A DNA stretch of 44,569 bases, taken from the sequence record OM632668.1. The stretch is one strand, 5' to 3'. Shown in pieces: positions 8,444 to 36,090 of the stretch. Both the position numbers and the translations under genes were made by a program. The stretch comes from Escherichia phage BEU35. Each line of letters opens with the position of its first letter. Positions within the stretch are counted from its first letter, which is position 1. The notes beneath the pieces were generated by a model that had not been told where the DNA came from, did no database searches, and saw only the letters and a program-made list of their open reading frames with translations.

Positions 8444-8448
8444 AACTA

Positions 8449-8471
8449 AGGCCCCTTTCGGGGCCTTTTTC
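8449..8471. terminator. bidirectional-looking intrinsic terminator between convergent genes
   Basis: AGGCCCC-tttc-GGGGCCT stem-loop followed by TTTTT. Confidence 0.6.
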
Positions 8472-10871: not shown

Positions 10872-11049
10872 AACATAACTCCTGATTTGAGATAACATCG
10901 TTGGTGTAAGTGAATAGTACGCTATTATATTGGGGAGTGCAAGTAGTGTGCTAGAATAATTTTGCGCCTAGTGTCGCACACGAAAAGCGGGTGGTTCCCG
11001 TCTGGCGCATTTCCTTTAACCAGTAACCTCTTAACCAAAGGATTAAAGA

Positions 11050-11466
11050 ATGAAACTTTCTGATTTTTATTACGAAGCGGAAGCCGAAAAGGGCGCACGT
11101 ATGCCGATACCGCTAAAAGACGGTACTGATTCCGGGGAATGGCTTAATGTTGTTTCTCCTGAGGCGGACGTTGCCGTTAAGGCTATGCGCGCGTTCACCC
11201 TTGCATACCGGGCAGTATTAGGGAAATTAAAACCGCTTCGTGATAAGTGCGAAGAGATGAAAGATTTCTCTGAATACAACCTGAAGATGGAAGACGCGGC
11301 GACGGACCTTAACCGTCAGTTAGCGATTGAATTGGTTAACGGGTGGAGCCTTGACGACGAATTCAATAAAGAGAATCTGAACACACTCCTGACGCAATAT
11401 AAACGACTCGCGGAACTTGTTGTTGTGTTTCATAACGAACAACTGCACCAGCTACAGGAAAAGTAG
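11050..11466 (+). CDS. tail assembly chaperone (G-like)
   Basis: Immediately upstream of tape measure gene; downstream ORF open in the -1 frame. Confidence 0.55.
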   Translation: MKLSDFYYEAEAEKGARMPIPLKDGTDSGEWLNVVSPEADVAVKAMRAFTLAYRAVLGKLKPLRDKCEEMKDFSEYNLKMEDAATDLNRQLAIELVNGWSLDDEFNKENLNTLLTQYKRLAELVVVFHNEQLHQLQEK

Positions 11467-19032: not shown

Positions 19033-21018
19033 ATGTCAAGCGGATGCGGTGACGTTTTAAGCCTGGCGGATTTACAAACCGCCAAGAAGCACCAGATTTT
19101 CGAGGCCGAGGTTATCACTGGCAAATCCGGCGGTGTAGCTACGGGTGCAGACATTGATTACGCAACAAATCAGGTTACCGGGCAGACGCAGAAGACGCTT
19201 CCTGCCGTGTTGCGCGACGCGTGTTTTTCTCCGGTGTCATGGGATTTCTCCACAGGCGGCACGTTAACCGTTAACGACCGGGACAAGGTGGTGTATGACC
19301 CTGTTAGCAAAACATGGTACTCGTACGCAGGTACGTTACCAGTTGTTGTCCCTGCATCGTTTAATCCAGTCGGTAACGCTAACTGGAAGCCGCAGACAGA
19401 CCCAAATTTGCGTAATGATTTGGCGTCAAGTACCGCCGGTTTGGGGGCTTCACTGGTGTCTTTTTCCAACGGTAACACCGTTGAAACATTATCTGACGCG
19501 GACGGTGCCAAGAACATAGGCAGCGGCGAAAGGAGTTTGCTTGCACGTAACAATGATATTAAGCATTCAGGAGACTTCTCTACCCTGCAAGCTGCAGTAG
19601 ATGCATCGTTACCGAAAAATGACTTACTTATTTCCCCTGGTGAATATACTGAAAAAGTTACTATTGGTAGCGCACAGTTAAAAGGCGTTGGTGGGGCTGT
19701 AGTACTAAAAACACCAGCAGACTTTACAAACACTGTTCAGGTTAATTTATCGACGCCTCATTGGCAATTCCGCCATAGTGGCGGTTTTGCTATAGATGGT
19801 TCTGGTACAACCGGGGCCGTAGGTATTAGTTTTGACCCGTCAGACCAATATTCCGGACGTCATAATTTTAGTGATTTATACATACACAACATCAACAAGG
19901 CAATTCAGAAGCCTTCCGGGAACATCGGTAATACATGGAGAAATATTGGGGTATCTACGTGTGATTGGGGGTATTACGCGATTAGTGGCTCAGAGATGCA
20001 TTGCGGGGCCGATACCCTCTACAATATCCACTTCGACGACATCTCCACCTATGCCGTCTACCTAAACGGCACTGTCGATAACGGCGGGATAGGCGGATGG
20101 TGGCTTAAAGACTCCATTATTGAGGCTTCCGGAGGCGGCGGGATATATTTAAAAAGCAAATCAGGTGACTGCCCTACATCTCCATGCGGGGTATCCAATG
20201 TATGGACGGAAGCGATTGCAACATCATCGGCTGTTCAGGTAGACGGCGTGGCGCAAAAACCGCGAGTTCTCAAGTTGGTAGACACCGCGATATTCTTTGC
20301 TGAGTATTCTTATCTCAATAACATCGAGCTATCCAACTCCAACTTAGTAACTTATGGTTGCCGTTTTGACAACGCCGATGGTAATCAGGATATTGTAGTG
20401 GATGCACAAAGCACCATTGTAGCCCACGATGTGTATTTAAACGGCAGTTCTGGAAAGGACGTTATTGTAGAGTCTGTCGCGTCGCAATCCGCAACGGTAG
20501 CCACTACAAACTTGTCTCTGCGAGGAAATTTAACAAGGGGACGAGTGTTTAATACGCCGACGGGGAATAAGTTAAAAGCTATCACATTTGACTCAGGTCG
20601 CCATAATTTTTCTGGTAGCGGTACCGTTAACGGTTCGACTGTATCTGACGGACTTCACGCCGCTACATGTACCGAATTTTCATTCCCTGGGTCCGGTTTA
20701 TATGAAATGGTAGCGTCAAGAACGACACTTACATCCGGTAGATGGTACGTGTGGGGCGTCAACTCTCGCCTCCAATCAGGAACAGCAGATGTGAGTATAA
20801 CGTCAGGTATTACTATGGGTAGCGTTTATACTAAGTCTGGTGAGTGGATTAGCACATTTGGGGTGGGTAAAGCTTCCGCTAACGGTACTGTAAGTCTGTA
20901 CGTCTCTACTGCGGGAGGTTCAGGTGCTGTTATCAGATTTAGCGACTTCTTCATCGCTGAGTTTACGACGCAGGCTCAGGCTTTAGCTTTCGCTAACTCC
21001 AGAATGTCGTTGGCTTAA
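19033..21018 (+). CDS. tailspike / receptor-binding protein, possible beta-helix depolymerase
   Basis: 661 aa, last structural gene, Gly/Asn/Ser/Thr-rich repetitive central region typical of beta-helix spikes. Confidence 0.55.
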   Translation: MSSGCGDVLSLADLQTAKKHQIFEAEVITGKSGGVATGADIDYATNQVTGQTQKTLPAVLRDACFSPVSWDFSTGGTLTVNDRDKVVYDPVSKTWYSYAGTLPVVVPASFNPVGNANWKPQTDPNLRNDLASSTAGLGASLVSFSNGNTVETLSDADGAKNIGSGERSLLARNNDIKHSGDFSTLQAAVDASLPKNDLLISPGEYTEKVTIGSAQLKGVGGAVVLKTPADFTNTVQVNLSTPHWQFRHSGGFAIDGSGTTGAVGISFDPSDQYSGRHNFSDLYIHNINKAIQKPSGNIGNTWRNIGVSTCDWGYYAISGSEMHCGADTLYNIHFDDISTYAVYLNGTVDNGGIGGWWLKDSIIEASGGGGIYLKSKSGDCPTSPCGVSNVWTEAIATSSAVQVDGVAQKPRVLKLVDTAIFFAEYSYLNNIELSNSNLVTYGCRFDNADGNQDIVVDAQSTIVAHDVYLNGSSGKDVIVESVASQSATVATTNLSLRGNLTRGRVFNTPTGNKLKAITFDSGRHNFSGSGTVNGSTVSDGLHAATCTEFSFPGSGLYEMVASRTTLTSGRWYVWGVNSRLQSGTADVSITSGITMGSVYTKSGEWISTFGVGKASANGTVSLYVSTAGGSGAVIRFSDFFIAEFTTQAQALAFANSRMSLA

Positions 21019-21023
21019 AACTA

Positions 21024-21046
21024 AGGCCCCGAAAGGGGCCTTTTCT
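21024..21046 (+). terminator. intrinsic terminator after tailspike gene
   Basis: AGGCCCC-gaaa-GGGGCCT stem-loop followed by TTTTCT. Confidence 0.6.
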
Positions 21047-21184
21047 CTACTCTTCTGATAGCTTCTCCAGTACAAACGCCAGTTGCGCATTAGCGGCGTC
21101 TCTTTGCTGGCGTAATCGTAGAACCTCTTCTTCAAGTTCCTTGATACGTTTTTGCAACGCCGGAATCGGGGCTGTGATGTTCAT
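21047..21184 (-). CDS. small coiled-coil protein (45 aa, below ORF-track cutoff)
   Basis: ATGA overlap with upstream Toprim gene stop; translation MNITAPIPALQKRIKELEEEVLRLRQQRDAANAQLAFVLEKLSEE. Confidence 0.35.
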   Translation of the reverse strand: MNITAPIPALQKRIKELEEEVLRLRQQRDAANAQLAFVLEKLSEE

Positions 21185-27275: not shown

Positions 27276-27292
27276 TATTTTCGACCCTTAGT

Positions 27293-27314
27293 AAAAAGGC
27301 CCAATGAAGGGCCT
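27293..27314 (-). terminator. intrinsic terminator on minus strand
   Basis: AGGCCC-loop-GGGCCT hairpin followed on the minus strand by TTTTT. Confidence 0.5.
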
Positions 27315-27334
27315 TAGTTAAATTGATTCAGAAA

Positions 27335-30663: not shown

Positions 30664-30891
30664 TTACTCGCCGTCGCCTTCTGTAAGGCTATCGTCTATT
30701 AATTCAAATTTACCGTTTGAGTGTTGGATAGCTTCTTGCCCGCAATGGTCGCAAACCACCAGTTTATCGAATCCGTCAAACTCGTCCCCGACTACGCAAG
30801 AAAGTACAAATTTATGTTTTGTACATACTTCTTGATGTTCACCGAAAATTACCCGGAAACATTTAGTTATAGCTCCAGTGATTATGTTCAT
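30664..30891 (-). CDS. small Cys/His-rich protein, paralog A
   Basis: Near-identical core to ORF 35878..36090 (QEVCT-HKFVLSCVVGDEFDGFDKL-VCDHCGQEAIQHSNGKFELI). Confidence 0.55.
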   Translation of the reverse strand: MNIITGAITKCFRVIFGEHQEVCTKHKFVLSCVVGDEFDGFDKLVVCDHCGQEAIQHSNGKFELIDDSLTEGDGE

Positions 30892-33762: not shown

Positions 33763-33996
33763 TTATTCCAGGTCTTCTAAAGTAGCGGTCATTCCGCGAA
33801 CTTCAGCAAAGGCACTATATTTCCCGCCAACATTTTTCACGACGCCAGATTTAACCAGCACTTTTAACGACCCTTCAATAATGACGGAACTATAGTACTT
33901 AAAATAACTGCGGCGCAAGTCGATAACGCTGCACGACCCTTTTTTACGTGTCAACGAAACGACCGCCGTAAATACGCGTGACTGAAACTCGGTCAT
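33763..33996 (-). CDS. small hypothetical protein ending in TLEDLE
   Basis: Operon context; C-terminal motif shared with exonuclease and primase. Confidence 0.4.
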   Translation of the reverse strand: MTEFQSRVFTAVVSLTRKKGSCSVIDLRRSYFKYYSSVIIEGSLKVLVKSGVVKNVGGKYSAFAEVRGMTATLEDLE

Positions 33997-34196
33997 TTCA
34001 CGTTCTCCTTAATCCACGCTTCCACTTTCTCCGGGTCGAACGTACCGGGCTGCCGGCGACCCATAATGCGGATACAACAATCAGGGAACCTCCCACTCTT
34101 TAACCAGTTATTAAGCGTGCGGCGAGTAACCCCGATACGCTCAGCTACTTCATTCTGTGTCATTCTCAAACCCTCATTATCAGTTAACGAAACCAA
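33993..34196 (-). CDS. AlpA/MerR-like helix-turn-helix DNA-binding protein
   Basis: MTQNEVAERIGVTRRTLNNW HTH signature. Confidence 0.55.
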   Translation of the reverse strand: MVSLTDNEGLRMTQNEVAERIGVTRRTLNNWLKSGRFPDCCIRIMGRRQPGTFDPEKVEAWIKENVK

Positions 34197-34599
34197 GTAT
34201 ACATTGCGAATAATGGGAAATCAAACATAATCGCACCTATTGACATTATGAAAATCTTCGTTTAAGGTGCTTCTATATCTTAGTTACTTTGATTCCTGTT
34301 CACCTTGTAATACCTGCTTGAAACGCAGCGGCGCCAAAGCGCCAGCGAAGTGTTAAGCAGCAGATTACTGAACATAAGAATTACCGTAACTTTCCTTCCG
34401 TAGTATCTCTGGTTGCCCTGGGCAAGCTCTATTCTCATCGGCAGCATATCTCTTAAGTATCTGATAATTAAAAGTTTCTATAGTTGCCGTGAGCAAGGTA
34501 GAGAGTACTTCACTCCGCTGGGGTGGGCTAACGCCCACCCACTGCGTTGCGTACTCTTTTAAGAAACGAAAGAATCACAACGGCAACGTAACTATTCTC

Positions 34600-34628
34600 T
34601 TGCACACCCCAACATAATAGGATACTAT
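34600..34628 (+). promoter_or_regulatory. sigma70-like promoter (TTGCAC-N17-TACTAT)
   Basis: Hexamer spacing read from sequence; shares aataggNtactattca with promoters near 30977 and 35841. Confidence 0.4.
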
Positions 34629-34662
34629 TCACTTATCGAAACGAGACAGAGGAGTGAGGGTT

Positions 34663-34854
34663 ATGTTTAAGAAGGGTCAGTTGGTTAAAACTAAACGCGG
34701 AGGGCAATATGTATTAGTGTTGCAGGACGAGAGCGAGTATGACGAGGATAATCTGGTTGACGTATGGGGTCTGGTAAGAAAGAAAACTGGGTTCGCCTCA
34801 CGCGATAATTTAGAACTCATCGGCAACAATTTTAAATTCAAAGGGGTGAAGTGA
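34663..34854 (+). CDS. hypothetical protein
   Basis: GAGGAG RBS; first gene of rightward operon. Confidence 0.4.
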   Translation: MFKKGQLVKTKRGGQYVLVLQDESEYDEDNLVDVWGLVRKKTGFASRDNLELIGNNFKFKGVK

Positions 34855-35877: not shown

Positions 35878-36090
35878 ATGAATGTAGTGGCGAGATGTTT
35901 TCACGCAATTTTCGGCGCACCGCAAGAAGTATGCACTAACCATAAATTTGTACTTTCTTGCGTGGTGGGGGATGAGTTTGATGGGTTCGATAAACTTATT
36001 GTCTGTGACCATTGCGGGCAAGAAGCTATACAACACTCAAACGGTAAATTCGAACTAATTAACGAGGAAGGGGATGGGGATGGTGAGTAG
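35878..36090 (+). CDS. small Cys/His-rich protein, paralog B
   Basis: Paralog of 30664..30891 in inverted orientation. Confidence 0.55.
   Translation: MNVVARCFHAIFGAPQEVCTNHKFVLSCVVGDEFDGFDKLIVCDHCGQEAIQHSNGKFELINEEGDGDGE

Follow-up and report, generated by a model that had tools for sequence, protein, structure and literature searches.

Introduction

P4 CI RNA, the 6S RNA of the lambda PR' promoter and the put RNA of HK022 are short untranslated RNAs made from early promoters, located ahead of a terminator and of the genes that they possibly control, in a mosaic control region; put RNA is composed of two short stem-loops. Here we analyse the region between two divergent operons of Escherichia phage BEU35 (sequence record OM632668.1), whose whole stretch of 44,569 nucleotides (nt) is called the window in what follows. 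This region contains a structured RNA element that would be transcribed from a predicted early promoter (PR1), and it can be compared both with these RNAs and with the transcribed replication origin of the lactococcal phage c2 (Ceduovirus).

The c2 origin is described as a non-coding region between divergent gene blocks that is bounded by the first early promoters, PE1 and PE2; no open reading frame (ORF) or ribosome-binding site follows PE1 and the non-coding transcript, PE1-T, is believed to start replication (PMC7150918). According to the same source, origins of this kind belong to three sequence types (>90% conserved inside a type and unrelated between types), the length and structure of the transcript matter, and chimeric c2 origins were reported to be non-functional (PMC7150918).

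A Candidate Locus for a Structured Early RNA

The window covers all, or nearly all, of the genome of a lytic siphophage that belongs to Kagunavirus (Guernseyvirinae). Very probably, the gap under study is non-coding, functions as a hub of early promoters and encodes a structured RNA element under purifying selection. Its elements are, in the order of the sequence:

34196..34224, minus strand: PL, a sigma-70-like promoter (TTGATT-17-TATACT) found by promoter scan.
34240..34268, plus strand: PR1, a sigma-70-like promoter (TTGACA-17-TAAGGT) read from the sequence, back-to-back with PL.
34282..34390, plus strand: rod hairpin of 109 nt (-41.9 kcal/mol, z = -7.3).
34391..34464, plus strand: ultra-conserved pyrimidine-rich block of 74 nt, made of UUUCCUUCC, UAGUAUCU, the hairpin P2, GCUCUAUUCUCAUCGGCAGC and the hairpin P3.
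34465..34563, plus strand: swappable module with a long hairpin (34500-34559), then UUUU (34557-34560).
34564..34599, plus strand: conserved stretch upstream of PR2, AAACGAAAGAATCACAACGGCAACGTAACTATTCTC, found in three Kagunavirus cassette types (five sequences).
34600..34628, plus strand: PR2 (TTGCAC-17-TACTAT), the second of the rightward early promoters, kept in both Kagunavirus and Jerseyvirus.

Read from the sequence, and only tentatively, the gap could be an immediate-early locus for a structured non-coding RNA, a discrete riboregulator acting through its conserved single-stranded block. The host RNA polymerase would make a discrete RNA of ~285 nt (~34276-34560) from PR1 right after infection, with some read-through. 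The rod would supply stability and a surface for protein recognition, and the single-stranded conserved block would be the working part of this riboregulator, through base pairing or through contact with a conserved factor, either of the host or of the phage. In our ranking this discrete RNA comes first, a transcript-dependent origin is a close second and a cis-acting leader is third.

The locus shares with P4 CI RNA, lambda 6S and HK022 put an early untranslated RNA (predicted here) placed before a terminator-like hairpin in a mosaic region, although it has no Rfam homology to them and a second promoter separates the RNA from the genes. It also lacks internal repeats of the seqA/seqC type complementary to this RNA, and its rod is much longer than put or nut elements. 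As in ColE1 RNA II, there is a highly folded untranslated RNA from a constitutive promoter (again predicted), with 5' stems that vary, a conserved 3' part and an unstructured 3' segment that could hybridise with the template. In contrast to ColE1, inspection of the minus strand gave no convincing antisense promoter for a counterpart of RNA I, nor any other minus-strand promoter inside the block, no start site of the RNase H or Pol I kind is evident, and Rfam gave no match to RNAI or to other plasmid control RNAs. The int-alpA RNA of Rfam (RF02996) is likewise a structured RNA that goes with AlpA/excisionase-type helix-turn-helix (HTH) genes, in enterobacterial mobile elements, although the gap region does not match it even at E <= 10 and has its RNA on the other strand from the HTH gene. 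A covariance-model scan, as proposed in the initial annotation of this DNA, found no Rfam 15 family in the gap region: at E <= 10 the only hit was ctRNA_p42d (E = 2.2, 16 bits versus a gathering score of 50), which is noise, and five loci spanning all three RNA types of this slot (see below) had no match at E <= 1.

Limits, Distribution and Coding Status of the Gap

A non-coding gap of 466 nt had been proposed at this position in the initial annotation. The gap is real, and its true limits are wider, 34164-34662 (499 nt). The left edge is placed at 34164 because the HTH gene begins at ATG 34163 (a 171-nt gene annotated in relatives), the TTG at 34196 being located inside the -10 box of PL; on the right, the first rightward gene begins at ATG 34663 and is preceded by a GAGGAG ribosome-binding site. 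It had been considered the longest gap of the genome, and the same 499-nt gap is the biggest intergenic one in the annotated phage fEg-Eco06, which is 98% identical over the target region. Its proposed position between divergent operons was also right, with HTH_17 and primase-helicase genes transcribed leftward and genes for small proteins rightward.

A blastn search of 50,697 phage records recognised the region in 449, mainly Escherichia Kagunaviruses (~80% identity) and Salmonella Jerseyviruses (~70%). All the matches are phages named for enterobacteria, plus one named for Pseudomonas, and no Lactococcus phage is among them. None of 5,426 complete E. coli genomes contains the region, and in PLSDB its right half was found (94% identity) at positions 640-833 of CP088689.1, a 44,086-bp 'plasmid' of Kagunavirus size from an E. 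coli blood isolate, which probably represents a misfiled phage genome, or else a carrier state. The linear GenBank records of the Salmonella phages pink, horsemountain, sidste and wast start or end inside or just after the intergenic region, most likely as a deposit convention and not as physical genome ends. Homologues were aligned from ten annotated relatives, and the set was later widened with IMG/VR and metagenome loci; 48 loci bear the element.

An overlooked small protein gene is extremely improbable as an explanation of the region. Some records annotate minus-strand ORFs of 51-95 amino acids (aa), those of NTEC3, Kenya-K2 and AMO_3701M place hypothetical proteins inside the gap, and the window itself has minus-strand ORFs of 55 and 57 aa; however, the ORFs are inconsistent in frame, start and length (36-116 aa) even among close relatives, no ORF of at least 35 aa is common to the homologues, and three relatives (SETP3, SE-W112 and L024) have none of that size in the gap. 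A hidden gene was rejected for this inconsistency. Moreover, the insertions and deletions of the rod are not multiples of three, and its variation is compensatory and not codon-like.

The Rod Hairpin

The rod begins ~6 nt past the predicted start of PR1, which we infer from the sequence to lie near 34275-34277. From the outside inward its helices are AGUUAC/GUAAC, GAUUC/GAAUU, UGUUCA/UGAACA, a 4-nt bulge (CCUU) and GUAAU/AUUAC, followed at the tip by a hypervariable stem and an apical GGCGC-CAAA-GCGCC (34330-34343). The bulge does not vary, nor do the helices on either side of it. The apical sequence corresponds to the second GC-rich palindrome that the initial annotation had placed near 34327-34345, and it is the tip of the 109-nt rod. 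On the plus strand the minimum free energy (MFE) structure represents 39% of the ensemble; the minus strand of the window sequence has z = -3.3 and an MFE frequency of 2.8%.

The 39 distinct homologues, each folded alone, adopt the same architecture (three outer helices, the 4-nt CCUU bulge, GUAAN/NUUAC, a variable stem and the apical stem-loop), with a mean z of -4.8. In a structure-blind MAFFT alignment of 41 sequences, 89.7% of the cells form standard pairs, versus 27-40% in controls in which the 3' partners were slid by 1-3 columns, and the outer helices alone reach 93.7% pairing. Both sides have changed in 11 of the 51 rod pairs, for example C-G/U-A at columns 20/114 and 41/86 and G-C/A-U/U-A at 37/92. 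A covariation score of 0.152 (0.106 in column shuffles) was obtained, a value reached by 0 of 500 shuffles, in sequences that are related to each other and for a structure taken from the sequence of the window. Selection has maintained the structure of the rod. When the alignment was turned into a covariance model, the window gave a single match, as did each genome with this RNA type. The heptamer AGTTACT of the rod foot is dispersed over the genome (13 copies vs 4.3 expected).

The plus strand is good rather than certain as the RNA strand of the rod. G-U pairs occur on the plus strand at conserved columns 16/118, 35/94, 150/160, 179/198 and 185/193, which agrees with the direction of PR1, and the strand call rests on this direction and on these few columns because the minus strand of Jerseyvirus rods also folds. 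The latter observation bears on an alternative that we find very unlikely, that the region is an element of DNA only (a classical iteron or unwinding origin, a cruciform, or an operator array for HTH or winged-helix proteins), the RNA fold being a by-product of a DNA palindrome. Folding of both rod strands, with the minus strand often the better one in Jerseyviruses, would be expected from such an element, and two small proteins of DNA-binding type are encoded next door; however, G-U pairs appear on one strand only at the conserved columns, and every variant of the region has a promoter exactly at the foot of the hairpin.

The Ultra-Conserved Block

The block that follows the rod contains the small hairpin P2 (34413-34425) and the weak hairpin P3 (34442-34463). 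Between the E. coli phages and most of the Salmonella phages listed it retains ~86-88% nucleotide identity over ~80 nt, above the identity of the whole neighbourhood (67%) and of the primase protein (58%), and 375 records match within a 201-nt query (34270-34470) spanning rod and block. It surpasses in conservation the essential genes beside it. Its own fold is not significant (z = +0.6); most of the changes that preserve the P2 and P3 pairs are one-sided G-U changes. The block has the appearance of a recognition sequence that has stayed constant over two host genera.

The Terminator-Like Module and the Exchange of RNA Types

The strong GC stem-loop which had been noted near 34518-34540 was found at 34521-34540, with GGGTGGGC (34521-34528), a TAAC loop and GCCCACCC (34533-34540), and a longer hairpin (34500-34559; -32.6 kcal/mol, z = -5.4) is built around it as its core. 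The 8-bp GC core is not directly followed by U, the extended hairpin has UUUU, and the terminator scan did not flag the structure. This type of hairpin is present in 5 of 48 related loci, 37 of which carry an alternative module (GGGCAGGC-TTAA-GGCCTGCCC-TTT) that is flagged as terminator-like on the plus strand; SCS44 has a third hairpin module and is 100% identical to the window from 34564 onward. A plus-strand terminator-like hairpin precedes PR2 in all three module types, two of them flagged in relatives, and it probably acts as a leaky terminator or marks where the PR1 RNA ends. A released RNA is favoured because this hairpin recurs in every module type. In the third cassette type a (CTCA)n repeat is located just before the terminator-like hairpin, with seven copies in SCS44 (~1426-1453 of locus L054) and three in Sciku (~1438-1451 of locus L055).

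The left part of the locus is exchanged as well, and three RNA types were found at this slot: the rod type (type 1), the K1ind2 type (type 2) and the fFiEco03/SCS44/Sciku type (type 3). The type-1 covariance model has no match in types 2 and 3, and remote homology between cassette types was rejected since the model matches type-1 genomes only. In K1ind2 the primase is 92% identical and the right part 96.5% identical from 34461 on, with all of 33775-34460 replaced; more generally, the swap of type leaves the primase 89-92% identical. Each replacement cassette has its own strong rightward promoter (predicted) in the same place, followed by ~200 nt free of ORFs that fold better than shuffles (z = -2.7 to -3.1). 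Five Kagunavirus loci were compared for gap length, which is 468-499 nt; the types all converge on a common junction (AAGTnnCTGAT, TGCCGTAR), and natural chimeras of left and right modules exist, as seen in the K1ind2 comparison.

Is the Region a Replication Origin?

The initial annotation had proposed either an origin or a regulatory RNA. The regulatory RNA is favoured by the promoter at a conserved position, the hairpin with compensatory changes in E. coli and Salmonella phages and the terminator-like hairpin, whereas for the origin the usual marks are absent and what remains is a layout like that of c2. The search for iteron-like repeats suggested there gave no repeat family with at least three regularly spaced copies in the gap, only short two-copy families such as AGTATCT (two copies 54 bp apart); AGTTAC/GTAACT words also recur. 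The recurrence of these words would suit a DNA-only element, although the lack of a regular family in at least three copies, and the fact that AGTATCT is not enriched genome-wide, argue against it. The gap has no cluster of DnaA boxes (one box with 1 mismatch), no GATC and no marked AT-rich unwinding element; the AT-rich stretches previously noted are present but modest (maximum 72% A+T over 40 nt). A classical origin is not supported, because iterons, DnaA boxes and an AT-rich unwinding region are lacking. GC skew was also rejected as an origin marker: its cumulative minimum, at 34 kb, falls where gene orientation switches, and the minus-strand gene island at 8.4-10.6 kb likewise has negative skew, which therefore reflects the coding strand and is uninformative on replication. 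The octamer TGTTCACC at 34297-34304, which we take to be the P4 origin octamer, led us to consider a P4-type origin, and this was discarded since the octamer is single-copy, lies inside a helix and is TGTTTCACC in Jerseyviruses, and the primase is of the AAA_25/RepA-like type and not like P4 alpha; the same facts count against an element of DNA only.

A different kind of origin, dependent on transcription as in c2 or ColE1, is a possible though doubtful reading of this layout. The PR1 transcript would act in cis on its template DNA: the rod would fold, the block would stay hybridised to the template as an R-loop or primer, and this would give an entry point or a 3' end for the phage primase-helicase and its Pol I-type polymerase, with no need of iterons or an initiator. 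The arrangement is close to that described for the Ceduovirus c2 origin (PMC7150918). The predicted PL and PR1 point away from each other, ~330 nt without ORFs lie between the predicted PR1 (34240-34268) and PR2 (34600-34628), PR1 is followed by no ORF or ribosome-binding site, a structured non-coding transcript is predicted, and several unrelated types exist, each conserved inside the type and with an apparently constrained length. In contrast to the origins of c2, bIL67 and 923, there is no sequence similarity here and the phylum of the host differs; a terminator-like hairpin precedes the second promoter; and this phage encodes a primase-helicase and a polymerase, whereas c2 origins replicate plasmids without phage proteins. 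We consider that the parallel is architectural only.

The origin reading explains better than a discrete RNA the unrelated RNA types (at least three) with a kept gap length, the position beside the primase-helicase operon, and the absence of a recognisable initiator or iterons. In addition, the lack of structure in the conserved block leaves it free to hybridise, and the primase remains 89-92% identical despite the type swap, as would be expected in the absence of a phage-specific origin binder. However, an AT-rich unwinding element, DnaA boxes and GATC sites are missing, GC skew offers no help, and the RNA of the block is pyrimidine-rich, a composition that is unfavourable for stable R-loops. 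Moreover, the terminator-like hairpins that recur after the block suggest a released RNA, no similarity to lactococcal phages appears among the 449 matches, and the sole 'plasmid' that bears the region looks like a whole phage genome. Natural left/right chimeras occur here, as against the chimeric c2 origins reported to be non-functional (PMC7150918).

An extension of this idea, somewhat less likely still, is that replication in the Guernseyvirinae starts from the PR1 RNA made by the host polymerase, the interchangeable, non-homologous structured 'alleles' recombining as modules, and the hypervariable rod tip determining specificity or competition between co-infecting phages.

Promoters, Operators and a Possible Leader

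Both hexamers of PL are kept in Kagunavirus and Jerseyvirus, and the record of PVP-SE2 annotates a promoter there; PL is predicted to head the leftward operon of the HTH, winged-helix and primase-helicase genes. The hexamers of PR1 are kept in a 10-locus alignment, with a variable spacer; its -10 box is TAAGGT in Kagunavirus and TAAGTT in Jerseyvirus, and equivalents occupy the same place in the other cassette types (TTGACA-16-TAAAAT; TTGACT..TGnTAAGCT). PR2 corresponds to the right-edge promoter already seen in the initial annotation, which had missed the main features of the region (the 109-nt covarying rod, the ultra-conserved block, PL and PR1). This promoter is conserved in relatives. Together with the bases downstream of it, PR2 has a near-copy (46 nt, 83%) on the minus strand at 10898-10943, at the head of a minus-strand operon (10641-8472) for a metallophosphatase, a polynucleotide kinase (PNK)-type phosphatase and a kinase-like protein.

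PR2 is overlapped by a palindrome, TAATAG-GATA-CTATT (34615-34629), whose general form, TAATAG-N4-CTATT, occurs at ~10 sites of the genome on both strands (18 strand matches versus 0.5 expected). The 15-nt sites start as follows:

10912, 24265, 28031, 30924, 30969, 34615, 35675, 35833 and 42309, both strands: TAATAG-N4-CTATT sites.
38519: a weaker tenth site.

The sites examined overlap promoter-like sequences, and a phage regulator of early and middle promoters, PR2 among them, probably uses the palindrome as a common operator. PL and PR1 lack it, which makes them look like ordinary promoters of the host polymerase that do not belong to this circuit. Two other palindromes were rejected as operators: TTGCC-N3-GGCAA, as a genome-wide one, because it occurs locally only, and CATAAT-N13-ATTATG, around the -35 box of PR1, because it is single-copy and is not kept in Jerseyviruses.

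The order of promoter, structured RNA, leaky terminator and genes also suggests a cis-acting leader of the rightward early operon, in which rod and block would modify the transcribing polymerase or the fate of the RNA (put-like or N/nut-like antitermination, RNase III processing like that of the T7 early leader, or stabilisation of the 5' end), so that PR1 transcripts would enter the early genes under control. Hairpins with short U tracts make read-through likely, and the winged-helix gene found with the type-1 RNA could form with it a protein-RNA pair like N and nut. This reading is nevertheless unlikely: PR2, located between the element and the first gene, looks sufficient alone, the units further downstream are served by promoters of their own, nothing comparable occurs in the leftward operon, and the rod (109 nt, ~40 bp) is unlike put RNA. 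A second structured RNA just upstream of the first gene of the other plus-strand block adds to the case for a leader; it is a match to int-alpA RNA (RF02996) at 10961-11025 on the plus strand, with 36.6 bits versus a gathering score of 35.8.

That int-alpA match comes immediately after a promoter-like site (TGnTAGAAT) and before the gene for a tail-assembly chaperone (11050-11466), and a structured RNA thus stands also just upstream of the first gene of the second plus-strand block.

Points Against a Discrete RNA

The discrete riboregulator RNA, which we still place first, has several facts against it. The sole published transcriptome paper on a Kagunavirus reports annotated genes only. The -10 box of PR1 is weak, and because it matches the consensus in 3/6 positions it falls below the threshold of the scan tool and was not listed; similarly, the scan did not flag the terminator hairpin of the window, whose U run has just four residues. 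In the Jerseyvirus rod the minus strand often folds as well as the plus strand or better. When duplexes of the block with the whole phage genome were computed, shuffled blocks gave energies at least as good, so that no target was found there. Finally, unrelated RNA types with a preserved gap length are not predicted for a riboregulator with a fixed target, and fit a transcript-dependent origin better.

Neighbouring Genes and Other Features

The genes next to the gap are the following:

33763..33996, minus strand: gene for a 77-aa winged-helix protein (PHROG 5169), outside the gap.
33993..34163, minus strand: gene for an HTH_17 (excisionase/AlpA-like) DNA-binding protein of 56 aa (Pfam HTH_17, E = 3e-7).
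34650..34854, plus strand: GAGGAG ribosome-binding site and first early gene (ATG 34663, 63 aa, PHROG 12538).

Leftward from the gap are encoded the HTH_17 protein (the first of the primase-helicase operon), the 77-aa protein and a 755-aa AAA_25 primase-helicase, whose protein is the one 58% identical between E. coli and Salmonella phages. The HTH protein retains 66-84% amino-acid identity over all the cassette types. The 77-aa protein goes only with the type-1 RNA, with which it is co-inherited, its Kagunavirus and Jerseyvirus versions being 66% identical; elsewhere its slot holds a 34% identical relative (K1ind2) or unrelated proteins (type-3 phages). Its AlphaFold2 (AF2) model has a helix-helix-helix-wing fold with a predicted local distance difference test (pLDDT) score of 85, and the Foldseek matches in the PDB, all with E > 1e-3, are generic winged helices (the N-terminal domains of MotA and LexA, and RPA32C). 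As a generic winged helix it does not discriminate among the hypotheses, and it was set aside as a clue to the function of the RNA. On the other side, the rightward genes begin with small proteins lacking an assigned function, the first being annotated as a 192-nt gene in relatives.

Two other repeats of the window were observed. The replication and regulatory module is flanked by a 171-nt inverted repeat (30692-30862 and 35895-36065), 85% complementary and with its arms 5 kb apart, which appears to reflect paralogous small ORFs in opposite orientation and could mediate inversion. A GC-rich hairpin, AAGGCCCC-(TTTC/GAAA)-GGGGCCTTTT, occurs three times (8444-8470, 21013-21049 and 27289-27319), near the ends of gene blocks or switches of orientation, and looks like a reused bidirectional terminator.

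Novelty and Significance

No description of this RNA or of the function of the region was found in the searchable literature, and in GenBank records the region is unannotated except for predicted promoters and sporadic hypothetical ORFs. It is a new and widespread RNA family of a known general kind, that of a promoter-proximal phage non-coding RNA or a transcribed origin region. Kagunaviruses and Jerseyviruses are among the most often isolated phages of E. coli and Salmonella, and they are used in therapy, biocontrol and synthetic biology, yet their early regulation and their replication origin have not been mapped. The locus is the most conserved non-coding sequence beside their replication genes, and its RNA is absent from Rfam and nearly always unannotated in the records examined. 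If the region encodes a regulator, this immediate-early phage RNA would be a new one and would operate in two host genera. If the region is an origin, the poorly understood transcript-dependent mechanism of the c2 type would extend to phages of Gram-negative bacteria, and the region would be off-limits for genome engineers. The presence of unrelated RNA types in one slot also makes this locus a tractable case of the modular evolution of a non-coding function.

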